Source: Candidatus Moranbacteria bacterium RIFCSPHIGHO2_02_FULL_40_12b
GTDB lineage: Bacteria; Patescibacteriota; Minisyncoccia; Moranbacterales; 2-12-FULL-40-10
Direction: 5' to 3'
Length of the DNA: 43,914 bases
Assembly (NCBI GenBank): GCA_001784725.1
Contig: MFRX01000034.1
Span: forward strand, 657-44,570
Part shown: piece after piece, positions 6,918-32,540 of the stretch
Layout: each line of letters begins with the position of its first letter
Position numbering within the stretch: position 1 is the stretch's first letter
Made by a program: the position numbers and the translations under genes
Notes under the pieces: model-generated
The model's input: only the letters and a program-made list of their open reading frames with translations
What the model was told of the DNA's origin: nothing
The model's database searches: none

Positions 6918-7697
6918 ATGCCTGAAAAACAAAAACCAAAAATCGCCATTGTCTCGCTCACTTCCTGCGAAGGATGCCAGTTCGCCCTTTTGGATTTGGG
7001 AGAAAAGTTTTTAAATTTAATGAATCAAGCGGAGATGGTTGATCTTCGGCTCTTGGAAGACGAGGAAGATAAAGGCGAAATGCTGGATATTGGAATCGTG
7101 GAAGGCAATCCAGTGACGGATGATAATGTAAAGACCCTGTTGAATTTAAGGAAACGCTCTAAATTACTGGCAGTTCTCGGAAACTGCGCGGCTATGGGCG
7201 GAATTCCGGAAATAAAAAATTATCATAACAGAGAAACCGCGCTAAAACACGTTTATAAATATATCCAGGGAATTAACAATCCCGAAATCAGGGAAGTGGA
7301 TAATTTCGTGAAAGTGGATTTTACTTTTCCGGGATGCCCCATAACCGGCGAAGAATTTTTGAAATATTTTCCGGAACTTATCGCCGGAAAAGTTCCCCAA
7401 ATTCCAGACCAGCCGGTTTGCGTGGAATGCCGGAAAAAAGGCAACCGATGTCTGCTGTTGGATAAAAAGCCCTGCTTCGGCCCGATGATTCTCGGCGGTT
7501 GCGACGCGGTCTGTCCCACTTCCCGGATGATGTGCCAGGGTTGCCGGGGACTGCGTCCCAAAGGAAATCTGGATGCCATGCGCCACACGCTCAAAGATAT
7601 GATGACGGACGAGGAGTTTGAAAACACGGCGGAAATTTACGGATTAAAAGATGATATAGAATTTAAATCAAAAATCAAAAATCAAAATGCAAAATGA
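6918..7697 (+). CDS. [NiFe]-hydrogenase small subunit (group-3-type, Oxidored_q6-like)
   Basis: N-terminal IAIVSLTSCEGCQ, GNCAAMGG, and C-terminal Cys clusters (CVECRKKGNRC, CFGP, CDAVCP, CQGC). An extended -10 (TGaTAAAAT, 6903-6911) ends only 7 nt before the ATG. Confidence 0.85.
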   Translation: MPEKQKPKIAIVSLTSCEGCQFALLDLGEKFLNLMNQAEMVDLRLLEDEEDKGEMLDIGIVEGNPVTDDNVKTLLNLRKRSKLLAVLGNCAAMGGIPEIKNYHNRETALKHVYKYIQGINNPEIREVDNFVKVDFTFPGCPITGEEFLKYFPELIAGKVPQIPDQPVCVECRKKGNRCLLLDKKPCFGPMILGGCDAVCPTSRMMCQGCRGLRPKGNLDAMRHTLKDMMTDEEFENTAEIYGLKDDIEFKSKIKNQNAK

Positions 7698-7738
7698 CAG
7701 TGTAAAATTAAAAATTTATATAAAATTTAAAAATATTT

Positions 7739-8716
7739 ATGAAAAAGGTTTTAATCCTCATTTTTATTATAATTGTAGGATTAGGAGTTTATAAATTCAA
7801 AGACGCTATTCCGGACAGAGTGAAAAACCGTTTAGCTGTTGCGGTGAAGGAGAAGAACTGGGAGAATCTTGTGAATGTGGTGATTCCGGGAAAATGCGAT
7901 GAGCCCTTTCAATACTCCATCGGCGGCGTTGATTCCCGATTTAACATAAATCAGGAAGAACTCGCGGCTATCGCGAAAATGGCGGAAAATATCTGGGACA
8001 GCCAAACGGGCAGGAATTTGTTTGAATATAATCCGGACGCGCCGCTGAAAATTAATCTGGTTTTTGACGAAAGGCAGCAGCAGACAATGGCGGCCGAAAC
8101 GCTGGAACAAAAACTGGAGAAGCTGAAGTTGTCGGATGCCGGCTTGAAAAAACAATACGACTTAATTTACGGCGCCTATTCAAAAAAAGTAGACGCTTAT
8201 AATTCTTCGGCAAAGAAATATGAAAGCAAGCTGAATAATTATAATAAAGACGTTATTTACTGGAACCAGCAGGGAGGCGCTCCGCCGGATGAATACGACA
8301 AATTGCAAAAAAGAAAAAAAGACATGGAGGCGATGTTTAAAGACCTTGAAAAAAGAAGAAAGGAAATAAACAATCTCATCGCGGAAATGAATGCTTTGGC
8401 CAATAAGGAAAGCCAGATTGCCGGTGATTACAACTCGGCGGCGGCCACTTACCGCAGCAAGTATGGAGGAAGCCGGGAGTTTGAGAAAGGGATATATAAC
8501 GGCCAGGAAATAAATATCTACCAGTTTGAGGAAAAATCCGACCTGGAACTTACTATCGCCCATGAGCTGGGGCACGCGCTGGGCGCGGGGCATGTGGAAA
8601 ATCCGCAATCGCTCATGTATTATCTGATGGCAGACCAGAATATGGATAAACCGAAACTGACCGTGGAAGATATGAAAGCGTTATCCGAATTGGGATGCGA
8701 ATTATATCCGAATTAA
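7739..8716 (+). CDS. Membrane-anchored coiled-coil protein with C-terminal metzincin-type zinc protease motif
   Basis: N-terminal TM helix, a long K/E-rich helical region, and HELGHALGAGH (HExxHxxGxxH). Confidence 0.65.
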   Translation: MKKVLILIFIIIVGLGVYKFKDAIPDRVKNRLAVAVKEKNWENLVNVVIPGKCDEPFQYSIGGVDSRFNINQEELAAIAKMAENIWDSQTGRNLFEYNPDAPLKINLVFDERQQQTMAAETLEQKLEKLKLSDAGLKKQYDLIYGAYSKKVDAYNSSAKKYESKLNNYNKDVIYWNQQGGAPPDEYDKLQKRKKDMEAMFKDLEKRRKEINNLIAEMNALANKESQIAGDYNSAAATYRSKYGGSREFEKGIYNGQEINIYQFEEKSDLELTIAHELGHALGAGHVENPQSLMYYLMADQNMDKPKLTVEDMKALSELGCELYPN

Positions 8717-8728
8717 ATCCGAATATTT

Positions 8729-9118
8729 ATGGATAAAATTTTGCACAAAGAACTTTCTTATAAAATAAATGGGATATTATTTAAAGTTCATAATAATTTA
8801 GGAAGATTTTGCAAACATGACCAATATTGTGAAGCCGTGGAGTCCATTTTAAAAGAAGAAAAAATAAAATATCAAAGAGAAATTGAAATCCCAATAAAAT
8901 TTAATAACATAAAACTCACAGGCAATATATTAGATTTTTTAATTGAAGATAAATTGGTTTTAGATGTAAAATGTAAAAAAGAAATAACAATTAAAGATTA
9001 TGTTCAAATGAAAAGATATTTAAGAGCAACCGGAAAAAATTTGGGAATTATAGTAAATTTTGCAGAGAAATCGGCAAGGATAAAAAGAATCTTAAATAAA
9101 GATCCGAATAAAAATTAA
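8729..9118 (+). CDS. GxxExxY / PD-(D/E)XK nuclease-like protein (PDDEXK_3-like)
   Basis: The family-typical layout is present: LGxx...E..Y region, D...DVK core (DFLIEDKLVLDVK), Q..RYL, GIIVNF. Confidence 0.6.
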   Translation: MDKILHKELSYKINGILFKVHNNLGRFCKHDQYCEAVESILKEEKIKYQREIEIPIKFNNIKLTGNILDFLIEDKLVLDVKCKKEITIKDYVQMKRYLRATGKNLGIIVNFAEKSARIKRILNKDPNKN

Positions 9119-9145
9119 TTCGCATATAATTCGGATTTAATTTGT

Positions 9146-10408
9146 ATGCAAATTCGTATCAACCATATCGCGAAAATGGAAGGGCACGCCGGGTTTATGG
9201 CAAGCGTTCTTCAGGGCGATGTGAAATCGGCCAAGTTAGAAATCCAGGAGGGTATCCGGCTTATTGAAGGAGTGCTAATCGGACGCCATTATAAAGATAT
9301 GCCAGTAATTGCGCAGAGAATCTGCGGAATCTGCCCCGTAGTGCATAATCTGACATCTATCAAAGCGATTGAAAACGCTTTCAGTATTAAGGTTTCCAAT
9401 GAAACGGTAAATTTGCGAAAACTTTTAGAATGGGGACAAATCATCCACTCTCACGCTTTGCATCTATTTTTTCTGTCGCTGGCTGATTTTTTGGATATTG
9501 AAAATGACTTAATATTAACGAAAGAGTATCCGGAAGAAACCAAAAAAGCCATTAAAATCCGCGAGTTTGGAATGTCTATCGTTAAAATTATCGGTGGGCG
9601 GGTAATTCATCCTTTAACAAATGAAGCAGGCGGTTTTAAAAAAATTCCCAAACAAGAGGAATTGCAGGAGCTGATTATTCAAGGCGAGGAAATTCTGCCG
9701 GTGGCGCTGGAAGTGGGAGAATTTTTCAAAAAAATAAAAATTCCAACATTTTCAAGGATGTCAGAGTATGTCTGTTTGGATAAATCCGCCGAATACGCGA
9801 TTTATGACGGCGATATTTCTTCCAATAAAGGGCTTCATATACCGGTGGAAAAATTCGAGAATAATTTCAAAGAACTTCAGCGCCCGCGGGAAATAGTCAA
9901 GAGAGTTATGGCTGACGGGAAAACCAGCTATATGGTGGGCGCCATCGCGAGAGTCAATAACCAGAGCAAAAAACTGAATTACAACGCGGAAAAATATCTG
10001 GAGTCGCTGGGATTTGCGCTTCCGGACTATAATCCGTTCCATAACATCCTTTATCAGATGACGGAGGTTATCCACTGCGTCGAGGAATCACTCAAAATGC
10101 TTCGGATTTTAGCACGCGGCAATTTAGAAAACGCCTTGACTAAAAATTACGAAATCAAAGAGGGTTCGGGAGTGGCAGCGGTGGAAGCGCCAAGGGGAAC
10201 TTTATATTACCATGTTGATATTGACGGCAAGGGTTATGTTAAAAACGTGAATATTATCACTCCCACGGCGCAGTTTTTGTCGCATCTGGAAGACGATGTC
10301 GCGGCCTATATCCCAAGCATTTTAGACCTATCCGACAAAGAAAAAGAAAAAAAACTGCGGGCTTTCATCCGGGCGTATGACCCGTGCATCAGCTGCGCGG
10401 TACATTGA
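9146..10408 (+). CDS. [NiFe]-hydrogenase large (catalytic) subunit, group-3-type
   Basis: The N-terminal Ni-binding motif is RICGICPVVH. The C-terminal motif DPCISCAVH is the very end of the ORF. Confidence 0.9.
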   Translation: MQIRINHIAKMEGHAGFMASVLQGDVKSAKLEIQEGIRLIEGVLIGRHYKDMPVIAQRICGICPVVHNLTSIKAIENAFSIKVSNETVNLRKLLEWGQIIHSHALHLFFLSLADFLDIENDLILTKEYPEETKKAIKIREFGMSIVKIIGGRVIHPLTNEAGGFKKIPKQEELQELIIQGEEILPVALEVGEFFKKIKIPTFSRMSEYVCLDKSAEYAIYDGDISSNKGLHIPVEKFENNFKELQRPREIVKRVMADGKTSYMVGAIARVNNQSKKLNYNAEKYLESLGFALPDYNPFHNILYQMTEVIHCVEESLKMLRILARGNLENALTKNYEIKEGSGVAAVEAPRGTLYYHVDIDGKGYVKNVNIITPTAQFLSHLEDDVAAYIPSILDLSDKEKEKKLRAFIRAYDPCISCAVH

Positions 10409-11874: not shown

Positions 11875-12177
11875 TCACTTGCTGGGCGAGAGTTTCTTAT
11901 CCAGTCCTCGTTTCCAACCGCCCAGCATCCGTCCGATTTCTTCCAGTTTTTGCGAAAGATTTATGTATTTTTCATTCGGAACAAGTTTGTTTTCCCATGC
12001 CAGTTGCAGAAAAAATTTCAAAACATCCAGTCGGGATATGGCTTTCCCCAGCAAAATTATTTTATGCTCCGGAGGAAGATAGGAAGCGGTAAAACTTAAT
12101 TCTAAAATTTCTAAAAATAAATTATCAATTCTTCTCCCGATTCCATAGCGCTCGGTTTTGGGGAAATCACGATGCAA
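11875..12177 (-). CDS. avd: Avd-like accessory variability determinant (four-helix-bundle / 23S rRNA IVS protein family); N-terminus uncertain
   Basis: FPKTERYGIG and the C-terminal EEIGRMLGGWKRGL resemble Avd/four-helix-bundle proteins. The TTG start gives 100 aa. The frame stays open 27 more codons upstream without a canonical start. Confidence 0.75.
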   Translation of the reverse strand: MHRDFPKTERYGIGRRIDNLFLEILELSFTASYLPPEHKIILLGKAISRLDVLKFFLQLAWENKLVPNEKYINLSQKLEEIGRMLGGWKRGLDKKLSPSK

Positions 12178-12309
12178 AATCAGCCAGTATTGATACGCTT
12201 CTTTTTCTTTTATGATTACGGCCGGCGAGGTCTTGGGGGGGGGGTCATAATAGTCATAAGTTTAAAATTTCCGCCAAAGGCGGATCCGCCAGTGGCGGAA
12301 AAAATCAAA

Positions 12310-13320
12310 ATGCAAAATAAAAAGGCAAAATTTGGAAAAAAATACGATGAAATTATTTCTTTGGATAATCTTTTGGAAGCCTGGAAAGAATTTTTGCAAG
12401 GGAAGCGGAACAAGAAAGATGTCCAAATTTTCCAAATGCGCTTAATGGACAATATTTTTGCGCTTCACGATGACCTCAATAATTTAACATATAAGCACGG
12501 CGGATATCAAGCGTTCAAAATCAATGACCCCAAGCCAAGAGATATCCATAAGGCCGCAGTGAGGGATCGGCTTTTGCATCACGCCATTTACAGAATCCTT
12601 TATCCTTTTTTTGAAAAAACATTCATTGCTGATTCATATTCTTGCCAACTCAATAAAGGGACGCATAGAGCGATTAATAGATTTAGAAAATTCTCATACA
12701 AGGTCAGTCAAAACAATATAAAAACCTGCTGGATATTGAAATGCGACATCAGGAAATTTTTCGCCAATATCAACCATGAAATTTTGCTTGGAATTTTAGC
12801 TCAATATGTTCCGGACAAAAATATATCACGGTTCCTTGAAGAAGTAGTCGGCAGTTTCAACACTAAAGGAAAGGATGATGTTGGATTACCGCTCGGAAAT
12901 TTAACCAGCCAGCTTTTCGTGAATATTTATATGAATAAATTTGATCAGTTTGTGAAACACGGATTAAAGGCGAAATATTACATTCGCTACGCCGATGATT
13001 TTGTGATTTTTTCGGGAGATAAAGAATGGCTGGAAGATAGAATCGAAACCATGCGAAATTTTTTGCGAAACGAATTAAAACTGGAACTCCATCCGGATAA
13101 AGTTTTCATAAAAACATTGGTTTCAGGATTGGACTTTTCGGGCTGGGTGAATTTTTGTGATCACAGAGTTTTGCGGACGGCGACCAAGAGAAGGATGATG
13201 AAAAGAATATCGGAGAATCCAAGTCCGGAGACATTGAATTCATATTTGGGGATGCTGGGGCATGGGAACGCGGAAAAGTTGAGAGAGGATATTTTTAATA
13301 ATTTTGTTTATAAGTTATAA
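12310..13320 (+). CDS. DGR-type reverse transcriptase
   Basis: LGNLTSQLFVNIY ((I/L/V)GxxxSQ, the DGR RT signature), YADD catalytic box (IRYADDFVIF), size about 336 aa. The start is set to ATG 12310. The listed 12172 start adds a low-complexity extension through the G10 tract. Confidence 0.9.
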   Translation: MQNKKAKFGKKYDEIISLDNLLEAWKEFLQGKRNKKDVQIFQMRLMDNIFALHDDLNNLTYKHGGYQAFKINDPKPRDIHKAAVRDRLLHHAIYRILYPFFEKTFIADSYSCQLNKGTHRAINRFRKFSYKVSQNNIKTCWILKCDIRKFFANINHEILLGILAQYVPDKNISRFLEEVVGSFNTKGKDDVGLPLGNLTSQLFVNIYMNKFDQFVKHGLKAKYYIRYADDFVIFSGDKEWLEDRIETMRNFLRNELKLELHPDKVFIKTLVSGLDFSGWVNFCDHRVLRTATKRRMMKRISENPSPETLNSYLGMLGHGNAEKLREDIFNNFVYKL

Positions 13321-15858: not shown

Positions 15859-17430
15859 ATGTACGACATAATTATCAAAAACGGAACTATTATTGACGGC
15901 ACGGGAAAGCCAATGTTCCGGGCGGATGTCGGAATTAAGGAAGATGAAATAAAAGAAATCGGGGAACTGCATAACGAACACGCCCATAAAACAATTGACG
16001 CCTCGGGGCAATACGTGGCGCCTGGTTTTGTGGATGTCAACAACCATTCCGACACCTATTGGAGATTTTTCATCAGCCCCGATTTGCCAAGCTTGATTTA
16101 TCAGGGAATCACGACGATTGTGGGAGGAAATTGCGGCTCATCGCTGGCGCCCCTGGTAAACAAAGACATCATTCAGTCCGTTCAGAAATGGACTGACATA
16201 AGATACGTGAACCTTAACTGGCTCAGAATGGATGAGTTTCTGGAGGAAATGGAAAGGAGAAAAATTTCCGTCAATTTTGCCACTTTGGTCGGCCACAGCA
16301 CGCTCCGGCGGGGAGTTATGGGAGACGCGGTGAGAGGGCTGAACACCGAAGAAGTAAAGAAAGTAAAGCATATGCTTAATGACGCGATAAAGGACGGAGC
16401 GATAGGGTTTTCCACCGGGTTGGTTTATACTCACGCGAAGCTGGCTTCAGAAAAAGAAATTACTGAGCTGATTTCAGTCGTGAAGAAATTTGACGGCGTT
16501 TATGCGACCCATATTCGCGGAGAATCAAGTGAATTAATGAAGGCGGTTGAGGAAGCGATACGAGTCGCCCAAATATCCGGAGTGAAACTGCAAATAACCC
16601 ATCTTAAGGCGATGGGAAAAGAAAGCTGGCATTTAATGGATGAGGCGCTAAATTTAATTGAGACCGCCCGCGCCAGCGGAGTGGATGTTGATTTTGACGT
16701 ATATCCCTACGATTATACCGGTTCGGTTTTATATACGCTTCTTCCCGACTGGGTGGCTGAAGGAGGGAAAAAAGCGATGATTTCCCGGCTAAAAGACCCG
16801 TCAATCCGCTCAAAGGTTATCGCGGAGATGATAACTGACGGTTTTGATTATTCAAAGGTCTTCATTTCTATTTCGCCGCTTGATAAAAATCTCCGCAAGA
16901 AAAAGATCGTTGATATCGCAAAAAATCTGGGAAAAAGCGTGGAAGAAACAGTAATCGACACCCTTGTCGCCAGTGAAGGCAGAGTGATGACAATCCTCGA
17001 TGTTTTGAGCGAGAAAAATGTCGAGAAAGCCATAAAAAATCCTTTTTCAATAATTTCTTCCAATGGAGCGGGATATAACACCGATCATTACAAAACCGGA
17101 GAGCATATTCACGCGAGGAATTTTGGATCATTCCCGAGAGTTCTCGCGAAATATGTAAGAGACCGGAAAATTATTAGCTGGGAAGAAGCAGTACGCAAAA
17201 TGAGCGGCAAGCCGGCGGAAAAGTACGGAATTAAGAAAAGGGGACTGATCAAAAATGGCAACTTTGCCGATGTAATTGTTTTTAATCCGAATGAAATTCA
17301 AGACCTCGCGACCAAAGAAAATCCCTATCAGTATTCAAAAGGGATTAATTGGATGATGGTCAACGGAAAAGTTGTCTTGGAAAACGGCAAATATAACGGA
17401 ATAAGAGCGGGAGAAGTAATAAGAAGATAA
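15859..17430 (+). CDS. N-acyl-D-amino-acid deacylase (D-aminoacylase) family amidohydrolase
   Basis: IKNGTIIDGTG, PGFVDVNNHSD, GGNCGSS, and a C-terminal beta-sandwich (ADVIVFNP). Confidence 0.8.
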   Translation: MYDIIIKNGTIIDGTGKPMFRADVGIKEDEIKEIGELHNEHAHKTIDASGQYVAPGFVDVNNHSDTYWRFFISPDLPSLIYQGITTIVGGNCGSSLAPLVNKDIIQSVQKWTDIRYVNLNWLRMDEFLEEMERRKISVNFATLVGHSTLRRGVMGDAVRGLNTEEVKKVKHMLNDAIKDGAIGFSTGLVYTHAKLASEKEITELISVVKKFDGVYATHIRGESSELMKAVEEAIRVAQISGVKLQITHLKAMGKESWHLMDEALNLIETARASGVDVDFDVYPYDYTGSVLYTLLPDWVAEGGKKAMISRLKDPSIRSKVIAEMITDGFDYSKVFISISPLDKNLRKKKIVDIAKNLGKSVEETVIDTLVASEGRVMTILDVLSEKNVEKAIKNPFSIISSNGAGYNTDHYKTGEHIHARNFGSFPRVLAKYVRDRKIISWEEAVRKMSGKPAEKYGIKKRGLIKNGNFADVIVFNPNEIQDLATKENPYQYSKGINWMMVNGKVVLENGKYNGIRAGEVIRR

Positions 17431-23915: not shown

Positions 23916-24377
23916 ATGAACATACTTTATCCAAAACGCGCTGAATATAGGAAAAAAATAACCAAAATAACTAAGTGTGAATTTTGCAACAGAAAAAATA
24001 TCAATCAACAAGAATGTAAAACATTGTCGGGAAAATCTTGGATGGTTTTAGTAAATAAGTATCCTTATATGGACGGAAATTTAATGATTGTCCCAAAACG
24101 CCATTTAAGAGATATAGAAGAATTAAATAAAGACGAAAGAAATGAGTTTTATCAAGTTTTTAAAAGCGCGAAAGTAAAACTTTCTAAAATTTTCAAAACA
24201 GAAGATTTTAATCTTGGTATAAATTTTGGCAAAAAAGCCGGATCATCAATTGAGCATATGCATTGGCAAATAATTCCGAGAAAGGAGAAAATTTTAAATT
24301 CCTCCAATATCTTTGCGGATTTATATGTCATAACAATATCTCCTGAAAAATTAAGGAAATTAATTGACAAAAAATAA
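23916..24377 (+). CDS. HIT-family nucleotide hydrolase/transferase
   Basis: N-terminal CEFC and a histidine-triad variant HMHWQIIP. Confidence 0.75.
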   Translation: MNILYPKRAEYRKKITKITKCEFCNRKNINQQECKTLSGKSWMVLVNKYPYMDGNLMIVPKRHLRDIEELNKDERNEFYQVFKSAKVKLSKIFKTEDFNLGINFGKKAGSSIEHMHWQIIPRKEKILNSSNIFADLYVITISPEKLRKLIDKK

Positions 24378-24378
24378 T

Positions 24379-25632
24379 ATGTCTTATTTTTTAAACCTAA
24401 AAAAACAGGATCCGCGGGTTTATAAATCCGTGCTGGGAGAAATAAAAAGGCAGCAGGAAGGGCTGGAAATGATCGCATCGGAAAATTATGTATCCGCTGC
24501 GGTGCTTGAAGCGCTGGGAACGGTGTTTACCAATAAATATTCCGAGGGCTATCCGGGAAAAAGATATTATGGCGGGCAGGAGTTCACCGATGTCATTGAA
24601 GAACTGGCAATCAAGCGCGCCAAAAAATTATTCGGGGCGGAGCATATTAATGTCCAGCCGCTTTCAGGAGCGCCGGCCAATATGATCGCTTACAGCGCGG
24701 TTTTAAAACCAGGAGATAAAATATTGGGAATGGATTTGTCGCATGGCGGACATCTTACCCACGGACATCCCGTTACTCTTTCGGCGAAAATTTATAATTT
24801 TATCAGATATAAAACCACTCCTGACGGGAAAATTAATTATAAAGAACTGGAAAAAATAGCAATCAAGGAAAAGCCAAAAATGATTTTAGCCGGATTCTCG
24901 GCGTATACGCGGCAATTGGATTACAAAAAATTTTCCGCTATCGCTAAAAAAGTCAGGGCAATTTCTATGATTGATATCGCCCATATTGCCGGACTCATTG
25001 CCGGCAAAGCGATTCCTAATCCAGTTCCGTATTTTGACATAGTAACTACAACGACGCATAAAACACTCCGCGGTCCCCGGGGTGGAATGATTATGTGCAA
25101 AAAGGGATTTGCCAAGGCCATTGATAAAGCGGCTTTCCCTGGATTTCAGGGCGGGCCGCATATGAACAATATTGCTGCATTGTCCGTGGCGCTTGGCGAA
25201 GCGCTGGAGCCGTCTTTTAAAAAATACGCGAAACAGATTATAAAAAACGCGAAAATTTTAGAACAAGAATTAAGAAAATATGGATTTAAAATTATGTTTG
25301 GCGGAACAGACAATCATATGGTGCTACTGAATGTATTCAGCAGCAAAGGCGTAACCGGCAAAGAAGCGGAAGTGGTACTGGATAAAATCGGCATAACCAT
25401 CAATAAGAACATGATTCCGGACGATCCGCGGCATCCGATGGACCCGAGCGGAATCCGCATCGGCGTTCCGGCGGCGACTACCCGCGGAATGAAAGAAAAA
25501 GAGATAAAATTGATTGCCCAATATATAAACGATGCGATTAGTAATCATAAAAACAATAAAACATTAAAACAAGTTAACAAGGAAGTGAAAAAACTCTGCA
25601 AAAAATTTCCGATATACAAAAATTTAAAGTAA
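24379..25632 (+). CDS. glyA: Serine hydroxymethyltransferase
   Basis: LEMIASENY, TNKYSEGYPGKRYYGG, TTTTHKTLRGPRGG (PLP lysine). ATG 24379 lies 1 nt after the HIT gene stop. Confidence 0.95.
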   Translation: MSYFLNLKKQDPRVYKSVLGEIKRQQEGLEMIASENYVSAAVLEALGTVFTNKYSEGYPGKRYYGGQEFTDVIEELAIKRAKKLFGAEHINVQPLSGAPANMIAYSAVLKPGDKILGMDLSHGGHLTHGHPVTLSAKIYNFIRYKTTPDGKINYKELEKIAIKEKPKMILAGFSAYTRQLDYKKFSAIAKKVRAISMIDIAHIAGLIAGKAIPNPVPYFDIVTTTTHKTLRGPRGGMIMCKKGFAKAIDKAAFPGFQGGPHMNNIAALSVALGEALEPSFKKYAKQIIKNAKILEQELRKYGFKIMFGGTDNHMVLLNVFSSKGVTGKEAEVVLDKIGITINKNMIPDDPRHPMDPSGIRIGVPAATTRGMKEKEIKLIAQYINDAISNHKNNKTLKQVNKEVKKLCKKFPIYKNLK

Positions 25633-25696
25633 ATGGTTCTGCGCTTAACACCGATCGACGCTTTGATAATTTGTAGAGCAAATGCATAAGAATTAT

Positions 25697-26251
25697 ATGA
25701 ATAGAAAAATTATAGCGATTCTGGGACTTCCCGGGTCGGGAAAAACGGAAGTTATAAATTATTTGATTAAAAAATTCAACTGGCCAAAAGTTTATTTCGG
25801 CGATGTTACTTTTGATGAATTAAAAAATCGCGGATTAGAAATTAACGAAAAAAATGAGCGGATGGTCAGAGAAGATTTAAGAAATAAATATGGCCGCCTC
25901 TACTACGCGAATAAAGTGGTTGAAAAAATAGAGAATATAAGTGATGCCGAAATTATTTTAGTAGAAAGTTTGTATGATTGGAGCGAATATCTTTTGTTTA
26001 AAGAAAAATTTAGCGATGATTTTTTAACAATAGCTGTTTATGCTTCTCCAAGAGTCAGATACGAAAGATTGGGAATAAGAAAGATAAGACCGCTTACACC
26101 CGAGGAAGCTCAGAGCCGAGACTATGCTCAAATAGAAAATATTTTTCAAGCGGGACCGATTGCAATGGCAGATTATACAGTGGACAATAATGACACGTTT
26201 GAAACTTTGTTTAAGCAAATCGACAATATTATAAGTAAAATTAATGCATAG
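25697..26251 (+). CDS. P-loop nucleoside/nucleotide monophosphate kinase-like protein
   Basis: Walker A GLPGSGKTE, about 185 aa. An alternative start is ATG 25682. Substrate cannot be assigned by eye. Confidence 0.6.
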   Translation: MNRKIIAILGLPGSGKTEVINYLIKKFNWPKVYFGDVTFDELKNRGLEINEKNERMVREDLRNKYGRLYYANKVVEKIENISDAEIILVESLYDWSEYLLFKEKFSDDFLTIAVYASPRVRYERLGIRKIRPLTPEEAQSRDYAQIENIFQAGPIAMADYTVDNNDTFETLFKQIDNIISKINA

Positions 26252-27086
26252 TTTTATGCATCAGTTCGACATCCAATACAAAGAAGCGCTCCGGAAAATA
26301 ATGAACGAGGGGAGCGAAGAATATAACGAGCGGACGGGGCACAGGACGCTGGCGCTTCCGGGCGTCACTTTTGAAATTGACGAGACCTTCCCGCTTCTCA
26401 CGCTCCGGAAAATTCCGGTGCGCATTTTTGTCGCCGAGCAGATCTGGTTCATTATGGGAAGCGATAATCCGGATGATTTCGTGGCCAGGTACACCAAGAT
26501 TTGGGATGACTTCCGCGAAGCCGACGGAAAAATCGCGGCGGCTTACGGGCATCGGATGCGGAAACATTTCGGCCGGGACCAGCTGAAAAATTTAATCGAC
26601 CATTTGGGACGGGAAAGGGGATCTCGCCACGGCGTAATCGTTTTTTGGGATCCGGGAGACGACGGGCTGGGAACCGGAACAAAGAAAAAAAATGTCCCTT
26701 GCCCATATACCTTTACGGCTAACGTAATTGACAATAAATTGCATTTGCATTTAATAATCCGTTCCAATGACATGATGCTGGGGTGCCCGCATGACATGGC
26801 GGGATTCGCGGTTATGCAGGCGATATTGGCAGCCAAAGTCGGAGCCGCAGTGGGAAAAATGACTTATTCAGTTAGTAACGCCCACATTTATGACATTCAT
26901 TATGACTACGCCAGAGAAATAATTGAAAGGGGAAACAACCACGGTCCGATATTTTTTGAAGCGCAGGAAAATTACTTTGACCGGGCGGAAAAAGGCGACG
27001 ACAAATTGTTTGAAGAAATAGTGGAAAAAATAAACAGCCAGTATAATCCGCTTCCACCGATAAAAGGGATGGAAATAGTTTTATGA
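26244..27086 (+). CDS. Thymidylate-synthase-family (ThyA fold) pyrimidine C5-modifying enzyme with Asp at the Asn177 specificity position
   Basis: Manual alignment to E. coli ThyA matches ERTG (R21), EQIWF, AYGHRMR, GSRH, VPCP (C146), IIRSND (R166/S167/D169), LGCPHD (N177 replaced by D), SNAHIY (H207/Y209). The Cys-to-Asp spacing is 31 residues, as in E. coli C146-N177. Confidence 0.8.
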   Translation: MHSFMHQFDIQYKEALRKIMNEGSEEYNERTGHRTLALPGVTFEIDETFPLLTLRKIPVRIFVAEQIWFIMGSDNPDDFVARYTKIWDDFREADGKIAAAYGHRMRKHFGRDQLKNLIDHLGRERGSRHGVIVFWDPGDDGLGTGTKKKNVPCPYTFTANVIDNKLHLHLIIRSNDMMLGCPHDMAGFAVMQAILAAKVGAAVGKMTYSVSNAHIYDIHYDYAREIIERGNNHGPIFFEAQENYFDRAEKGDDKLFEEIVEKINSQYNPLPPIKGMEIVL

Positions 27087-27592
27087 AAATTATAATGATA
27101 ATGGCCGCTACGGCCGACGGAAAAATCGCCAAAAACTCCGGACATTTTCCCGACTGGACTTCCAGGGAGGATAAGAAGTTTTTCGCGCGCGAATCCAAAA
27201 AAGCGGGCGTGGTGATAATGGGTGGGAAAACATTCGACACTTTTCCGGCGCCGCTTAAAGGCCGGCTGAACGCAATTGTGACGATTGATAAGGGTTACAA
27301 AGATATCCCGGGTAAAGTGAAGGTCTACTATAAAAAATCCCCTAAGTATATACTGAAGGACTTGAAAAAAATGGGCTACAAAAAAGCGATATTGGGCGGA
27401 GGAGCGTTTATCAACGGATTATTTTTAAAAAATAAATTGGTTGATGAAATGATAATTATTATCGCCCCGAAATTTTTTGGAAGAGGGCTCTGCTTGACTG
27501 AAGGGTTTGATTTTGATTATAATTTAAAAATAATTGAGACATATAAAATAAATAAGGACTCGGTTTTGCTTCATTATAAAATTTTATACTAA
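27083..27592 (+). CDS. Dihydrofolate-reductase-like protein (RibD C-terminal domain family)
   Basis: MAATADGKIA...DW.S.EDKKFF...VIMGGKTFD. It overlaps the ThyA-family gene by 4 nt (ATGA). Confidence 0.65.
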   Translation: MKIIMIMAATADGKIAKNSGHFPDWTSREDKKFFARESKKAGVVIMGGKTFDTFPAPLKGRLNAIVTIDKGYKDIPGKVKVYYKKSPKYILKDLKKMGYKKAILGGGAFINGLFLKNKLVDEMIIIIAPKFFGRGLCLTEGFDFDYNLKIIETYKINKDSVLLHYKILY

Positions 27593-27593
27593 G

Positions 27594-28253
27594 ATGGCAA
27601 CTTTAACCAAAAAAGAAATTATAAATTTGATAAAAGAGAAGAAAATTGAGTTTGATCCGGAACTTGACCAGTTTCAGGTCCAGCCCAATTCTGTCGATAT
27701 CCGGGTCGGCTGGAATTTTTATATTCCCAAAACCTGGGAATATAACGAAAAAGGGAGAGTGGCACTTAACATAAATTATCTGGACCAGGGCATCAAGAAA
27801 GACAGCTACAAAATAATCCGGCTGGTGGAAGGACAGTATTTTGAAATACTTCCCGGAGAATTCGTGATAATATCAACTCTGGAAAAAATAAAGCTTAATG
27901 AAGGAAAACTGATGGCGGTTCTTTACGCGAGAAGTTCAACGATAAGAAGGGGGCTGGTCGTGGAGAGCGGAACGATTGACGCCCGCTATGAAGGATATCT
28001 TATGCTTCCGGTAATGAACAACACCAAAGACCAGATAATCAAGATTTATCCCGGAGAAAGGATATGCCAGCTTGTTTTTCATGAATTGTCCTCCGGACTT
28101 ACAAAAGAAGAAGCGGACATTCACGGAGTGGCAAAAGCCAAATATCTTTCATCCACCTCCTACGGGCTGGAAGCGCGGAGCGACAGCGAAGAGGAAATTA
28201 ATTTAATCAAAAAAGGAAAAATAAAGGACTTAAAAAATAAATATAAAATTTAG
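27594..28253 (+). CDS. dCTP deaminase/dUTPase-superfamily protein lacking the Dcd catalytic Glu (dUTPase/dCTPase-like)
   Basis: QPNSVDIRVG, ARSSTIRRG, GTIDARYEGYLMLPVMN. Pro occupies the position of E. coli Dcd E138, 10 residues after the ID Asp. The Tyr 3 residues after the ID Asp matches dUTPases. Confidence 0.75.
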   Translation: MATLTKKEIINLIKEKKIEFDPELDQFQVQPNSVDIRVGWNFYIPKTWEYNEKGRVALNINYLDQGIKKDSYKIIRLVEGQYFEILPGEFVIISTLEKIKLNEGKLMAVLYARSSTIRRGLVVESGTIDARYEGYLMLPVMNNTKDQIIKIYPGERICQLVFHELSSGLTKEEADIHGVAKAKYLSSTSYGLEARSDSEEEINLIKKGKIKDLKNKYKI

Positions 28254-28268: not shown

Positions 28269-28796
28269 ATGAATGAAATAAAATATCCATATATTCCTGA
28301 AGGACGCAATATGTTATACGTTCCGGCAAATAATCCTTTTATGATTGAAGCAATTCTCGTTAGAAATACTGAGAGTACTGACAAGAATCATTCGACCGGC
28401 GCGGTTGTGGTCAAAGGGGGAGTGATTATTGGCAGAGCGGCTAATCATGCCGGATTTAAACATCCAAAGTTTATCGCGCTTCACGCCAGGGGCTGGTGTA
28501 TCCGCAGAAAACTTAAAGTAAAATCAGGAACGAAATATTGGCTTTGTCCGGGATGTTCAACTCATGTTGATCATGCGGAAAGCGGCGCTGTTCGTGATGC
28601 TATAAGTAAAGCAGGAACTGAAGCGGTTATTGGCGCGGATTTGTATCTTTATGGACATTGGTGGTGCTGTAAGCCGTGCTGGGACGCTATGATTGAGGCA
28701 GGAATAAGGGATGTCTATCTTCTGGAAAAATCCTGGGAGCTTTTTAATTCAGAGCTTAATCACGAAATAAAGAAGCGGGGAAAGCCGAAAAATTGA
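28269..28796 (+). CDS. Deoxycytidylate (dCMP) deaminase family zinc enzyme
   Basis: HAE (VDHAESGAV) and PCxxC (CKPCWDAM) zinc motifs. The C-terminal GIRDVY is ComEB-like. Confidence 0.8.
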   Translation: MNEIKYPYIPEGRNMLYVPANNPFMIEAILVRNTESTDKNHSTGAVVVKGGVIIGRAANHAGFKHPKFIALHARGWCIRRKLKVKSGTKYWLCPGCSTHVDHAESGAVRDAISKAGTEAVIGADLYLYGHWWCCKPCWDAMIEAGIRDVYLLEKSWELFNSELNHEIKKRGKPKN

Positions 28797-28906: not shown

Positions 28907-29584
28907 ATGGAAAGAGGAAAATTTATTGTAATAGACGGAACAGATGGAAGCGGCAAGGCGACGCAAGCTAAACTGCTAATAAAGAGATTAAAAAAAGAGG
29001 GCTATAGAGTTAAATTGGCTGATTTTCCCCAATATGGAAAAAAATCAGCGGGACTGGTTGAGGAATATCTTAATGGAAAATATGGCGAATCAAAAGAAGT
29101 TGGTCCATATCGTGCTTCTGTTTTTTACGCCTGCGATCGCTATGACGCTAGTTTTGAGATACGGGAAGCTCTAAATGAAGGAAAAATTGTTATTTCCAAC
29201 CGTTACGCAGCATCCAATATGGCGCATCAGGGAGGGAAAATAAAAAATTCCCGTGAGAGAAAAAAATTTCTGAAATGGCTGGATGATTTAGAATTTGGGA
29301 TATTTGCTATTCCCCGCCCAAATCTCAATATCATACTTCATGTGGACGCAGCTGTGGCGCAAAAACTGGTTGATAGTAAAGGATATCGGGATTATGTTGG
29401 AGGAAAAAAGAGAGACATTCACGAAGCGGATATCAAACATCTATGCGATGCTGAAAAAATATATATTGAAATAGCGAAAAATTTTCCTGGATTTTCACTG
29501 ATTGAATGCACTCGAGGCAGGAAAATTATGAGTCGGGAAGAAATAAGCAAGATGGTTTGGAAAAAAGTTAAGAAAATAGTTTAG
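28907..29584 (+). CDS. tmk: Thymidylate kinase
   Basis: FIVIDGTDGSGKATQ P-loop, DRY motif (CDRYDAS), and the lid region. Confidence 0.9.
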   Translation: MERGKFIVIDGTDGSGKATQAKLLIKRLKKEGYRVKLADFPQYGKKSAGLVEEYLNGKYGESKEVGPYRASVFYACDRYDASFEIREALNEGKIVISNRYAASNMAHQGGKIKNSRERKKFLKWLDDLEFGIFAIPRPNLNIILHVDAAVAQKLVDSKGYRDYVGGKKRDIHEADIKHLCDAEKIYIEIAKNFPGFSLIECTRGRKIMSREEISKMVWKKVKKIV

Positions 29585-29657: not shown

Positions 29658-29987
29658 ATGAACTTTGAAGAATACCAGAAAAAATCAAGAAAAACCGCTA
29701 AATATCCCGAGGCGGATAATAATTTTGTCTATCCTACTTTGGGATTAGCCGGCGAATCCGGAGAAGTGGCGGAGAAAATAAAAAAAGTCATTCGGGACAA
29801 AGGCGGAAAAATTGACGATGAAACTAGAGAATTGATTAAGAAAGAATTAGGAGATGTTTTGTGGTATGTGGCGCAGCTGGCAACGGAACTGGGCTTGTCG
29901 CTGGATGATGTCGCCAGCCATAACATTGAAAAACTTTACAGCCGGCTGGAGAGGGATAAATTAAATGGTAGCGGAGACAATAGGTAA
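29658..29987 (+). CDS. MazG-like (all-alpha) nucleoside triphosphate pyrophosphohydrolase
   Basis: LAGESGEVAEKIKK (ExxE) and ELGDVLWYV motifs. About 109 aa. Confidence 0.8.
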   Translation: MNFEEYQKKSRKTAKYPEADNNFVYPTLGLAGESGEVAEKIKKVIRDKGGKIDDETRELIKKELGDVLWYVAQLATELGLSLDDVASHNIEKLYSRLERDKLNGSGDNR

Positions 29988-30106: not shown

Positions 30107-31606
30107 ATGAAGTATATCCCGGTTATTGGTATGGAAGTGCATGTTGAACTCAAGACCGAGTCCAAGATGTTTTGCGCGTCCAAAAATGGGATGGGGGAGG
30201 AGAAAGAACCGAATGTGAATATTTGCCCGGTTTGCACGGGACAGCCGGGAACCTTGCCAGTGCCGAACCGGCAGGCGATAGAATTCGTACAGCTTATGGG
30301 ACTCGCGCTTAATTGTGAGCTAAGTAAAAATTCAAAATTTGATAGAAAAAATTATTTTTATCCCGATCTTCCAAAGGGCTACCAGATATCGCAGTATGAC
30401 CAGCCATTATGTCAAGATGGACATCTTGACATAATTAAAGTAATAAAGCAAGAAAACATGAAAACGAAGCGGATTGGGATTACGCGGATTCATTTGGAGG
30501 AAGATGCGGGGAAGTTATTGCACCCGAAAGGAGCAAATTACTCCTTGGTTGATTTTAACCGCGCGGGAGTGCCGCTGATGGAATTAGTGACGGAGCCGGA
30601 CATTGAATCGGGAGCGGAAGCCAGATTATTTTGCCAGAAGCTTCAGCAGATATGCCGATATTTAAATATTTCGGACGCGGATATGGAAAAAGGGCATATG
30701 AGGTGCGAAGCTAATATATCTATATATAAAGAAGGCGAGGATAAATTAAGCGGCACCAAAGTGGAAGTTAAAAACATCAATTCTTTCAAATTTGTGGAAA
30801 AAGCCATTGATTATGAAATAAAAAGGCAAGAAGAAATTCTAGAAAAAGGAGAAAAGGTGATTCAGGAAACCCGCGGCTTTGACAGCAATAGGAATATTAC
30901 GGTCTCCCAAAGAACCAAAGAAACCTCAGCGGATTACCGCTATTTTCCTGAACCGGACATTCCGCCGCTGAAATTCTCTGATGAATACATTGAAAATCTA
31001 AAAAGAAAGTTGCCGGAACTGCCGGAGGCCAAAGCCCTGCGCTTTGAAAAAGAATTCGCCCTTCCTAAAGCGGACGTGGAGGTTCTGGTTTCCGAAAAAG
31101 ATCTTGCTGATTTCTTTGAACAGACAGCAGCGGAGATTGCCGAAAAAATAGAGGCGAAAGAAATATCTTCCAATCAGGAAAGAGCGGTGAAACTAGCGGC
31201 CAATTACGTCATTAGCGAACTCAAAAAACATCTGGCGGAAACCGGAGAAAGCGTCGTGGACATAAAAATCAATCCTGAAAATTACGCGGAGCTCATCGGC
31301 TTAGTCGCGGACGGAAAAATAAATTCCAGCGCGGCGCAAACCGTGCTGGCTGAAATGTACCGCACCGGCGGCGACCCCTCGCATATTATTGAAGAAAAAA
31401 ATCTCTCACAAATGAGCGATGAAAATGAATTAGAAGTCATCATAGAGAAAGTTATCAAAAACAATCCGAAATCAGTTGCCGATTACAAAAACGGAAAATC
31501 CAACGCTTTGCAGTATCTGGTGGGAAAGGTTATGTCGGAAACGAAAGGGAAAGCTAATCCGAAGATAGTTTTGGAAATGCTGAAGAAAAAATTAAATGAA
31601 ACCTAA
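30107..31606 (+). CDS. gatB: Asp-tRNA(Asn)/Glu-tRNA(Gln) amidotransferase subunit B
   Basis: IGMEVHVEL, CPVCTGQPGTLP, RKNYFYPDLPKGYQISQ, and a C-terminal GatB/YqeY domain. Confidence 0.95.
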   Translation: MKYIPVIGMEVHVELKTESKMFCASKNGMGEEKEPNVNICPVCTGQPGTLPVPNRQAIEFVQLMGLALNCELSKNSKFDRKNYFYPDLPKGYQISQYDQPLCQDGHLDIIKVIKQENMKTKRIGITRIHLEEDAGKLLHPKGANYSLVDFNRAGVPLMELVTEPDIESGAEARLFCQKLQQICRYLNISDADMEKGHMRCEANISIYKEGEDKLSGTKVEVKNINSFKFVEKAIDYEIKRQEEILEKGEKVIQETRGFDSNRNITVSQRTKETSADYRYFPEPDIPPLKFSDEYIENLKRKLPELPEAKALRFEKEFALPKADVEVLVSEKDLADFFEQTAAEIAEKIEAKEISSNQERAVKLAANYVISELKKHLAETGESVVDIKINPENYAELIGLVADGKINSSAAQTVLAEMYRTGGDPSHIIEEKNLSQMSDENELEVIIEKVIKNNPKSVADYKNGKSNALQYLVGKVMSETKGKANPKIVLEMLKKKLNET

Positions 31607-32540
31607 AATGAAAAAACTGGGGAGTGTTATCGAGGCGCAGCAATTTGATAAGGAAACATTGGAGAAAATTTTCTCCACAGCCAATCAAATGGAAAAATCT
31701 CCGCCTTCTGGATTATTAAAAGGGAAGATTATGACTTCTCTTTTTTATGAACCCAGCACCAGAACCCGGCTAAGTTTTGAGTCAGCCATGCAGCGGCTGG
31801 GAGGCGAAGTAATAGGAACCGAAAATGCCAGAGAATTTTCTTCCAAAGCCAAAGGAGAAAGCTTGGAGGATTCCATAAGAGTGGTCAGCAGTTATTGCGA
31901 TATCATAGTGTTGCGTTATTACAAAGAAGGGGGTGCCGAGAGAGCTAAAAAATTTTCAAGCGTTCCCATAATCAACGCGGGCGACGGCATCGGACAGCAT
32001 CCCACCCAGGCATTGCTTGATCTCTACACCATTAAGAAATGCTTCAGTAGAATAAAGAAATTAAAAATAGCCCTGATTGGAGATTTAATGAATGGCCGGA
32101 CCGTAAGGTCGCTATGCTATTTTCTGGCAAAGCATTATCCTGATAATCACATCTACTTTATATCTCCGGAGCAGACGCGGATGAAAGATGACATTAAAAG
32201 TTATTTAGACAAGCATAACTTGAAATGGGAGGAGAGGAAAAATTTTAACTCAATTATTTCGGATATCGATATTTTCTACCAAACGAGAGTGCAGAAAGAA
32301 AGATTTGAGGGTAATATTGAGGTATATAAAGAAATTATGAAGTCCAGTGAAGGCATTTATATAACTCGGGACACGTTGAAAAAAATGAAATCAAAAGCGT
32401 GTATCCTCCATCCATTGCCGCGGGTTTCGGAAATCAAATATGATGTTGACGGCGATAAGCGGGCAAAATATTTCGACCAAGCCAAAAACGGGGTCTATGT
32501 CCGAATGGCGCTTCTTAAAATGATTTTAGCGGGGTATTAA
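31596..32540 (+). CDS. pyrB: Aspartate carbamoyltransferase catalytic subunit
   Basis: STRTRLSFE, HPTQALLD, HPLPR. An alternative start is ATG 31608. Confidence 0.9.
   Translation: MKPKMKKLGSVIEAQQFDKETLEKIFSTANQMEKSPPSGLLKGKIMTSLFYEPSTRTRLSFESAMQRLGGEVIGTENAREFSSKAKGESLEDSIRVVSSYCDIIVLRYYKEGGAERAKKFSSVPIINAGDGIGQHPTQALLDLYTIKKCFSRIKKLKIALIGDLMNGRTVRSLCYFLAKHYPDNHIYFISPEQTRMKDDIKSYLDKHNLKWEERKNFNSIISDIDIFYQTRVQKERFEGNIEVYKEIMKSSEGIYITRDTLKKMKSKACILHPLPRVSEIKYDVDGDKRAKYFDQAKNGVYVRMALLKMILAGY

Follow-up and report, generated by a model that had tools for sequence, protein, structure and literature searches.

A thymidylate synthase homolog carries aspartate at the pyrimidine-specificity position

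We analyzed a 43,914-nucleotide stretch of a Candidatus Moranbacteria contig (hereafter the window), with the focus on a gene for a homolog of thymidylate synthase (TS) of the ThyA fold. The gene lies in a forward-strand operon that encodes, in order, a cytidylyltransferase-like protein, a HIT-family protein, serine hydroxymethyltransferase (SHMT), a deoxynucleoside monophosphate (dNMP) kinase-like protein, the TS, dihydrofolate reductase (DHFR), a Dcd-like protein, a zinc deaminase, thymidylate kinase (Tmk), and a MazG-like protein, and that is followed by gatB (Table 1). Residues of this TS carry their own numbers (for example, Asp184), and positions compared between proteins follow Escherichia coli ThyA (for example, 177).

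The 280-amino-acid product of this open reading frame (ORF) matched the Pfam model PF00303 (Thymidylat_synt) with 169.7 bits, relative to a cut-off of 24.3. A phmmer comparison with the Protein Data Bank (PDB) aligned it to E. coli ThyA across the whole catalytic core, including LGCPHDMAGFA against LGLPFNIASYA. The catalytic residues fall in register: Arg30 corresponds to Arg21 of E. coli ThyA (in ERTG), Glu65 to Glu58, Tyr101 to Tyr94, Arg128 to Arg126, Cys153 to the catalytic Cys146 (VPCP), Arg173, Ser174, and Asp176 to Arg166, Ser167, and Asp169 (IIRSND), and His214 and Tyr216 to His207 and Tyr209 (SNAHIY). The protein also keeps residues 236-280 and a TS-like C-terminal tail. Over its full length, an AlphaFold2 model (predicted local distance difference test score of 90.8) can be superposed on canonical TS (TM-score of about 0.78), and its top Foldseek matches were all TS (E value near 1e-20, TM-scores of 0.75 to 0.79). 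Counted from the annotated ATG at 26244, the ORF shares its first 8 nucleotides with the end of the upstream kinase gene. Orthologs begin at MTQFD, which corresponds to Met5 of this ORF (MHQFD, at 26256), and the real start is therefore probably at 26256.

In canonical ThyA, position 177 is an asparagine that reads the O4/N3-H edge of uracil, and in this protein it is Asp184, 31 residues past the catalytic cysteine. Four other residues of the canonical pyrimidine, folate, and phosphate sites, His147, Leu143, Trp83, and Arg127, are Pro154, Asn150, Phe90, and His129. A preliminary description of this DNA had reported a ThyA fold aligned position for position with the E. coli catalytic residues, the aspartate in place of Asn177, an RSND...D context in common with the deoxycytidine monophosphate (dCMP) hydroxymethylase gp42 of phage T4, and an overlap with a DHFR-like gene. 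The alignments reproduced the first three, the overlap of the DHFR start with the TS stop by ATGA is real (...gttttATGAaaatt at 27083-27086), and the DHFR assignment is sound.

Asp184 is a fixed character of the clade and is neither a one-off nor a sequencing error. The 120 closest database homologs, which are 62 to 86% identical, come from metagenome-assembled genomes of Patescibacteria, or Candidate Phyla Radiation (CPR), wherever the source is named, and are annotated as thymidylate synthase. In GTDB, with one genome per species, two short motifs were matched in the representatives of at least 360 species. The best 80 of these 360 matching species together with the window made up a set of 81 loci. 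The best 80 of 360 belong to Moran-, Portnoy-, Falkow-, Harrison-, Jackson-, Kuenen-, Magasanik-, Doudna-, Wildermuth-, Shapiro-, Colwell-, Peri-, Gracili-, Uhr-, and Nomurabacteria, and complete chromosomes are included. Aspartate occupies the Asn177 site in 120/120 closest homologs and 81/81 loci. Orthologs with asparagine in the same operon were also sought among metagenome contigs with the Dcd-like neighbor, and not the TS, as the seed, and all 45 TS genes that adjoin a Dcd-like gene and cover the position encode aspartate. Asparagine was never seen at 177 among more than 240 orthologs.

Other active-site positions are similarly constrained. Asp177, Pro147, Asn143, Phe83, and Asp169, as well as a hydrophobic C terminus (usually ending in IVL), are present in every one of the 81 loci, as are Cys146, Glu58, Tyr94, Arg126, Arg166, Ser167, and His207. 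Position 21 is arginine in 77/81 and position 209 is tyrosine in 80/81, while position 127 is histidine in 74 and glutamine in seven. The WDPxxDGxG region was selected automatically as a conserved pattern for motif-based searches.

Table 1 Features of the operon and of the TS gene. Positions are those of the window; the last column gives the number of the 81 loci in which the gene was found near the TS.
Feature	Position	Strand	Basis	Loci
ThyA-fold enzyme, predicted dCMP C5-methyltransferase (5-methyl-dCMP synthase)	26244..27086	+	PF00303; PDB alignment; AlphaFold2 model; blastp	
WDPGDDGLG insertion/motif, common to Xp12-type enzymes, not in canonical TS or T4 gp42	26646..26672	+	Alignment	
N150-V-P-C153-P154: catalytic Cys, Asn at the Leu143 site, Pro at the His147 site	26691..26705	+	Alignment	
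Asp184 codon (GAC), E. coli Asn177 site (pyrimidine-specificity residue)	26793..26795	+	Alignment; in LGCPHD	
C-terminal tail IKGMEIVL, counterpart of the folate-closing IKAPVAI tail in E. coli ThyA	27060..27083	+	Alignment	
SHMT, regenerates 5,10-methylene-tetrahydrofolate	24364..25632	+	PF00464, 513 bits	17
P-loop dNMP-kinase-like protein	25682..26251	+	AAA_18; PHROG 139 dNMP kinase, 50.8 bits; PADLOC dCTPase N-terminal domain	31
DHFR	27083..27592	+	PF01872/PF00186; T. maritima DHFR 1cz3, E 1.8e-22 (best PDB match)	73
Dcd/dUTPase-fold protein, Pro139 (codon 28008-28010) at the catalytic-Glu site	27594..28253	+	PDB alignments to Dcd 4xjc and 2qlp; MAFFT with E. coli Dcd	75
Divergent zinc (cytidine deaminase-fold) deaminase, predicted 5-methyl-dC nucleotide deaminase	28269..28796	+	PF00383, 44.9 bits	70
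Tmk	28907..29584	+	PF02223, 76.4 bits	47
Small MazG-like NTP pyrophosphohydrolase	29658..29987	+	PF03819; phrog_229, 138.7 bits	6

The TS groups with Xp12-type phage enzymes

We searched 1.8 billion cluster representatives with HMMER and examined the best 150 matches. Nearly all of these combine Asp177 with Asn143 and Phe83, and most also have Pro147. The canonical set of Asn177, His147, Leu143, and Trp83 appeared only below about 130 bits. The best matches among sequenced phages were Ruegeria phage Tedan and Xanthomonas phage Mallos with its relatives, and the TS homolog of Mallos is 64% identical to that of Xanthomonas phage Xp12. By blastp, the TS of the window scored 160 bits against Tedan, 150 against Mallos, 137 against Xp12, 108 against E. 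coli ThyA, and 56 against T4 gp42. A neighbor-joining tree, which is without bootstrap support and indicative only, placed the Asp177 enzymes together, with the bacterial clade beside an Xp12-like clade and T4 gp42 on a long basal branch. The signature at positions 143, 147, 169, 176, and 177 is N-P-D-H-D in the TS of the window and N-P-D-Y-D in Xp12, Mallos, and Tedan, and the combination of Asn143, Pro147, and Asp177 was present in 22/22 relatives from IMG/VR (position 143 in viral loci was scored with a motif-anchored regular expression). These comparisons indicate that the closest characterized relative is the Xp12 dCMP methylase and not T4 gp42.

The Xp12 enzyme provides a functional precedent. 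Xp12 DNA contains 5-methylcytosine (5mC) in place of all cytosine, and infected cells have a tetrahydrofolate-requiring dCMP methyltransferase (PMC8543423). In a preprint, the TS homolog of Xp12 and five of seven Asp177 homologs from viromes gave 5-methyldeoxycytidine (5mdC) in E. coli together with the T4 dNMP kinase, and the deaminases encoded in cis to such TS genes were 5mC-selective, with a role in making thymidine triphosphate (dTTP) from 5-methyl-deoxycytidine triphosphate (5-methyl-dCTP) concluded by the authors (bioRxiv 10.1101/2024.12.05.627091). The Xp12 deaminase has been described as specific for 5-methyl-dCTP (PMC12088426). In addition, positions 177 and 147 were the two that best separated cytosine-modified from unmodified virome contigs (PMC8670742), and a single change of asparagine to aspartate at 177 is cited as turning TS from methylation of deoxyuridine monophosphate (dUMP) to that of dCMP (as cited in PMC8670742 and PMC13326640).

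Product rules published in 2026 associate N177D with dCMP as the substrate, a bulky residue at the Leu143 position, which keeps water out, with a methyl product, Asp or Glu at 143 with a hydroxymethyl product (as in T4 and MilA), and D169N with 5-hydroxy-dCMP (PMC13326640). A study of MilA paired Arg126'/Ser167 with deoxyribose and Lys/Ala with ribose, and noted that the T4 hydroxymethylase is without the 27 C-terminal residues by which TS covers its folate site and that DHFR is dispensable where the reaction yields tetrahydrofolate (THF) (PMC5175136). When these rules are applied to the TS of the window, Asp184 predicts dCMP as the substrate. The retained Asp176, which is conserved in 81/81 loci, argues against a 5-hydroxy-dCMP synthase of the RB69/DLP3 type. 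Arg128 and Ser174 form the deoxyribose-type pair and not the Lys and Ala of the CMP hydroxymethylases MilA and BcmA. Asn150 is non-acidic, as in Xp12, and is not the acidic residue 143 of T4-type enzymes, and the tail of about 27 residues that leaves the T4-type folate site open by its absence is present. Overall, the rules point to 5-methyl-dCMP as the predicted product.

Natural fusions occur among the Asp177 cluster representatives. In P0137 (433 amino acids) a dCMP-deaminase domain is joined to the TS, and in P0163 (424 amino acids) the TS is joined to a PRA-PH nucleoside triphosphate (NTP) pyrophosphatase domain, with which the MazG-like protein of the window has no sequence-level similarity. 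A further representative of the Asp177 clade, P0138, is a fusion of an HNH endonuclease and a TS. Two IMG/VR contigs (L171, 6001-6837, and L172, 6001-6831) encode bacterial-type TS proteins (54% and 48% identical, with Asn143, Pro147, Phe176, and Asp177) adjoining a Dcd-like gene. These contigs are either Patescibacteria phages that bear the module or misclassified bacterial contigs.

The surrounding operon is conserved across Patescibacteria

Genes near the TS in the 81 loci were identified with hidden Markov models built from the operon proteins (Table 1). Many of the loci are incomplete, and the linkage counts are thus lower bounds. The order and orientation of the operon genes are shuffled between lineages while the neighborhood is kept, which argues for selection on linkage. 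The same core was found between the L11/L1 genes and gatB on four other CPR contigs, and the TS, deaminase, and DHFR genes are consecutive in Xp12, in Mallos, and in most of the IMG/VR relatives. The rest of the window encodes cellular housekeeping functions, including TIM, FBA, GAPDH, NusG, L1, S2, EF-Ts, MiaA/B, MurD, and seven tRNAs. A Pfam scan of the larger ORFs of the 44-kb window detected no second thyA and no thyX, and Rfam detected no regulatory RNA in the window, only the tRNAs.

The folA genes of CPR bacteria complement E. coli without folA (PMC11974145). The NCBIfam dTMP kinase models matched Tmk below their curated cut-offs (for example, TIGR00041 at 78.6, cut-off 83.25). The MazG-like gene is an accessory part of the operon, since it was found in six of the 81 loci only. 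Together, the kinase, with its matches to PHROG dNMP kinases and to the N-terminal part of the PADLOC anti-phage "dCTPase", and the phage-type MazG lend the operon a phage-like flavor. In some Patescibacteria loci a thymidine kinase gene is joined to the operon (L008, and downstream of Tmk in L009 and L010), and in L008 (14881-16125) it forms a 414-amino-acid fusion of Tmk and thymidine kinase. In the L008, L009, and L010 lineages, thymidine salvage is thus present alongside the predicted de novo route.

The Dcd-like protein passes the NCBIfam threshold for dCTP deaminases despite having Pro139 in place of the catalytic glutamate (Glu138 in E. coli). Proline occupies this site in 70/79 operon copies and serine in 3/79, and glutamate in none. 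The RSS and IDxxY motifs of the dUTPase type are retained. The protein is unlikely to deaminate dCTP and is probably a non-deaminating deoxynucleoside triphosphate (dNTP) pyrophosphatase that is misnamed in annotation. Without the deaminase glutamate, the operon would be left without the usual step from dCTP to dUTP. We considered a role for the protein as a supplier of dUTP and rejected this as a likely role, given the proline at the catalytic position. Functional relatives of Dcd have been reported from CPR in a study of Dictyostelium Dcd2, and these may or may not be of the same family as the protein of the operon.

The zinc deaminase contains an HAE motif (residues 102-104), a CKPC motif (134-137) within GHWWCCKPCW, and a Cys-rich insertion before HAE. 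Both H[AGS]E and CxxC were kept in 70/70 orthologs, and the subfamily has a GHWWCCxPCW motif. Compared with the deaminase of Xp12 and with solved dCMP deaminases, the protein showed no significant similarity, and a PDB search gave only weak RibD matches. For this reason, we rejected the possibility that it is an ortholog of the 5mC-selective deaminase of Xp12.

Other features of the window

Just past the operon, the end of gatB is overlapped by a gene for an aspartate/ornithine carbamoyltransferase (31596-32540, forward strand), and an amidohydrolase gene (15859-17430, forward strand) lies further upstream. Both genes are possible relics of a pyrimidine metabolism in a reduced genome. Between hydrogenase-like genes and the GAPDH gene there is an ORF with a reverse-transcriptase domain (RVT_1) like those of group II introns or retrons (12172-13320, forward strand; 82.9 bits), and no group II intron RNA was found in the window at the Rfam gathering score. 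The ORFs for NiFe-hydrogenase-like small (6918-7697) and large (9146-10408) subunits, also on the forward strand, are split by two ORFs encoding a matrixin-like peptidase (7739-8716) and a PD-(D/E)XK nuclease (8729-9118), which is an odd interruption (6918-10408 as a whole, all forward strand).

A predicted route to thymidylate by way of 5-methyl-dCMP

In cells, thymidine monophosphate (dTMP) is taught to be made from dUMP by ThyA or ThyX. We propose, with a probability of roughly 0.6, that the TS of the window is a dCMP C5-methyltransferase and that the operon leads from dCTP through dCMP and 5-methyl-dCMP to dTMP, in which case the route of phage Xp12 would be used as cellular housekeeping. 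The Xp12-type active-site signature and the conserved housekeeping operon suggest that thymidine nucleotides are probably made via 5-methyl-dCMP and not via dUMP. Our observations concern the pattern of residues, the kinship with the Xp12 clade, and the conservation of the operon, and from these we infer all of the substrates and products that follow.

In the proposed route, the Glu-less Dcd-like pyrophosphatase, perhaps with the MazG-like protein as a helper, would first hydrolyze dCTP to dCMP. Cys153 of the TS would then attack C6 of dCMP, while Asp184 would hydrogen-bond with and protonate the N3/N4 edge of the cytosine. On the model of the homologs that are reported to form 5mdC, the methylene group of 5,10-methylene-THF would be transferred and then reduced by the cofactor hydride, yielding 5-methyl-dCMP and dihydrofolate, and the folate would be recycled by SHMT and the translationally coupled DHFR. 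Following the phage precedent, the zinc deaminase would convert 5-methyl-dCMP to dTMP, and Tmk would carry dTMP on to dTDP. Alternatively, the dNMP-kinase-like protein may phosphorylate the methylated product, so that deamination would proceed from 5-methyl-dCTP to dTTP, as in Xp12. The presence of Tmk in the operon favors deamination at the level of the monophosphate, and the dNMP-kinase-like gene (PHROG 139) leaves the triphosphate route open. In either case, the net result would be thymidylate without a dUMP intermediate.

Several observations are in line with this order of steps. The fusion of a deaminase domain to the TS in P0137 and the linkage of the two genes in 70 of the 81 loci support methylation followed by deamination, and the fusion in P0163 suggests that the logic of pyrophosphatase then methylase is used elsewhere. 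The linkage of Tmk in 47/81 loci fits a dTMP intermediate. The preference of the operon deaminase for a methylated substrate is inferred from the logic of the pathway and not from homology: were the TS to reject dUMP, a neighboring deaminase of the plain dCMP type would give a dead-end product. The operon deaminase is a candidate for a new family of 5-methyl-dC nucleotide deaminases.

The preliminary description had predicted dCMP over dUMP as the substrate, had leaned toward a methyl over a hydroxymethyl product, and had named deamination of that product by an adjacent deaminase as one of two possible fates. Comparative evidence agrees with each of these points. For the substrate, Asp177 is accompanied by Pro147, and these are the two best-discriminating positions in viromes (PMC8670742). 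For the product, the Xp12-type grouping, Asn143 and Pro147, the WDPxxDGxG insertion, the TS-like tail, and the linkage to DHFR in 73 of 81 loci all favor methyl transfer. For the fate of the product, the Xp12 system offers a precedent for deamination to a thymidine nucleotide (bioRxiv 10.1101/2024.12.05.627091), and the deaminase gene recurs with the TS. The deaminase is indeed part of the operon, but it is not directly adjacent, as the Dcd-like gene lies between the DHFR and deaminase genes.

A number of points weigh against the proposed route. The case for the bacterial members is made from homology and gene context, and the TS of the window is only about 33% identical to the Xp12 enzyme, with position 176 being histidine in the bacterial clade and tyrosine in the Xp12 clade. 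The weakest link is position 143: its asparagine is neither leucine, as in methylating ThyA, nor acidic, as in the hydroxymethylases, and Xp12 alone provides the precedent that ties it to methylation. Since the operon deaminase has no significant similarity to that of Xp12, selectivity for 5mC cannot be carried over on grounds of homology. The Dcd-like protein may act as a normal dUTPase and provide dUMP, and the DHFR could serve only to reduce salvaged folate. The scan for thyA and thyX covered the 44-kb window, and a second, canonical thyA or a thyX may lie elsewhere in the genome. Finally, ribonucleotide reduction still yields deoxyuridine nucleotides, whose fate the scheme leaves unexplained.

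Other explanations for the operon

The TS may instead be an ordinary dUMP-methylating enzyme in which Asp177 is tolerated, for example in a protonated form, or is offset by Pro147, His176, and His127, with the deaminase and the Dcd-like protein supplying dUMP. Public annotation names it thymidylate synthase, papers on CPR metabolism count it as an ordinary thyA (PMC12455944, PMC11974145), and it narrowly passes NCBIfam TIGR03284 (110.6, cut-off 108.35), but the other NCBIfam thyA equivalog cut-offs were missed by a wide margin. Along the full length, the nearest solved folds are those of canonical TS, a context of thyA, folA, dcd, deaminase, and tmk is what would be expected for a normal thyA, and dUMP could come from the Glu-less Dcd-like protein acting as a dUTPase. 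We nevertheless consider this explanation unlikely. The change from asparagine to aspartate at this very site is the one cited as switching TS from dUMP to dCMP (in PMC8670742 and PMC13326640), no reversion to asparagine occurred in more than 240 orthologs, and the combination of Asp177, Pro147, Asn143, and Phe83 with the insertion is the signature of enzymes reported to give 5mdC.

A second explanation keeps 5-methyl-dCMP as the product but makes it mainly a DNA precursor. In this scenario the kinase would phosphorylate it, the Dcd-like and MazG-like proteins would deplete dCTP, 5mC would replace chromosomal cytosine wholly or largely, and the deaminase would divert a part to dTTP. The operon does hold analogs of all the parts used for base replacement in phages (a non-deaminating NTP pyrophosphatase, methylase, PHROG 139 kinase, deaminase, and phage-like MazG and TS families), and the same enzyme class supports full replacement in Xp12. 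This is improbable, given that we found no report in the literature of globally 5mC-substituted Patescibacteria DNA despite the many sequenced genomes, that the kinase and MazG were found in only 31/81 and 6/81 loci whereas Tmk is common, and that the sequence itself says nothing about DNA composition. There is a still slimmer chance that many Patescibacteria both route thymidylate via 5-methyl-dC and incorporate 5-methyl-dCTP at scale, leaving their chromosomal cytosine largely or wholly 5mC.

Lastly, a dCMP hydroxymethylase like T4 gp42, with a product destined for DNA modification or deaminated to 5-hydroxymethyl-dUMP, would account for Asp177 in the shared RSND...D context and for a polar Asn143 in place of the water-excluding leucine of the rules (PMC13326640), but it is likewise improbable, because residue 143 is non-acidic, the folate-closing tail that T4 gp42 lacks is present (PMC5175136), T4 gp42 lies farthest from the TS of all references (56 bits), Xp12 also has Asn143 and is reported to make 5mdC, an enzyme producing THF would give no reason for the tight linkage to DHFR, and the cell would be left without a de novo route to dTMP.

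Implications of a dUMP-independent route

The enzyme class and the route of methylation followed by deamination are already known from phages. What appears to be undescribed is that a major radiation of bacteria would use them, conserved and on the chromosome, as its thymidylate pathway, together with a separate subfamily of deaminase and a Dcd-like partner without the glutamate; our literature searches, in a library that is incomplete, found no description of such a pathway in Patescibacteria or any cell. If the proposed route is correct, a large part of the Patescibacteria would use a third arrangement, in which dCMP is methylated and then deaminated and dUMP is off the path. Metabolic reconstructions of these reduced genomes, which now count the gene as an ordinary thyA, would change, and the route would bear on how Patescibacteria avoid uracil in DNA. 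It would also suggest that a housekeeping pathway of bacteria and a DNA-modification module of phages have a common origin, and would provide a new and divergent group of candidate 5mC-directed deaminases, a kind of enzyme that is of interest for methylation sequencing. Furthermore, the question would arise whether Patescibacteria DNA contains unusual amounts of 5mC. Were 5mC substitution to be global, these would be the first cellular organisms with a base substituted before replication, as is so far known only in phages such as Xp12.

Comparison with known systems

With E. coli ThyA (EC 2.1.1.45), the TS of the window shares the full-length fold, the catalytic set, the C-terminal tail, and the coupling to DHFR and SHMT. 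It differs by the replacements N177D, H147P, L143N, W83F, R127H, and F176H, and by a predicted substrate of dCMP instead of dUMP. The engineered N177D (E. coli) and N229D (L. casei) enzymes are point mutants made in the laboratory, whereas the TS of the window carries the change naturally and together with co-adapted changes in the active site. With the dCMP hydroxymethylase T4 gp42 it shares the ThyA fold, the catalytic cysteine, Asp177, and the RSND motif, but T4 gp42 has Asp143 and Thr147, is without the C-terminal tail and the WDPxxDG insertion, and makes THF and not dihydrofolate.

The Xp12-type systems (Xp12, Mallos, Pseudomonas phage PaMx74, Roseobacter phage RDJL, and Ruegeria phage Tedan) consist of a ThyA homolog with a deaminase and DHFR in cis. 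Their enzymes and that of the window alike have Asp177, Pro147, Asn143, Phe83, and a retained Asp169, as well as a WDPxxDGxG....KNVPCP insertion, an AAYGxRxRxxFGRDQL motif, and a C-terminal YNPxP, all three of which are absent from E. coli ThyA and T4 gp42. Both the phage and the bacterial TS are linked to a zinc deaminase and DHFR, although the deaminases are not orthologous and belong to different subfamilies, and the expected common product is 5-methyl-dCMP, of which a part would be deaminated to a thymidine nucleotide. The bacterial enzymes differ in having His176 and His127 where the phage enzymes have Tyr176 and Arg or Gln127. The bacterial gene is chromosomal, near L11/L1 and gatB, and is found in hundreds of Patescibacteria species. 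Its operon adds the Glu-less Dcd-like protein and Tmk, and its likely purpose is the supply of dTMP and not the genome-wide base replacement of the phages.

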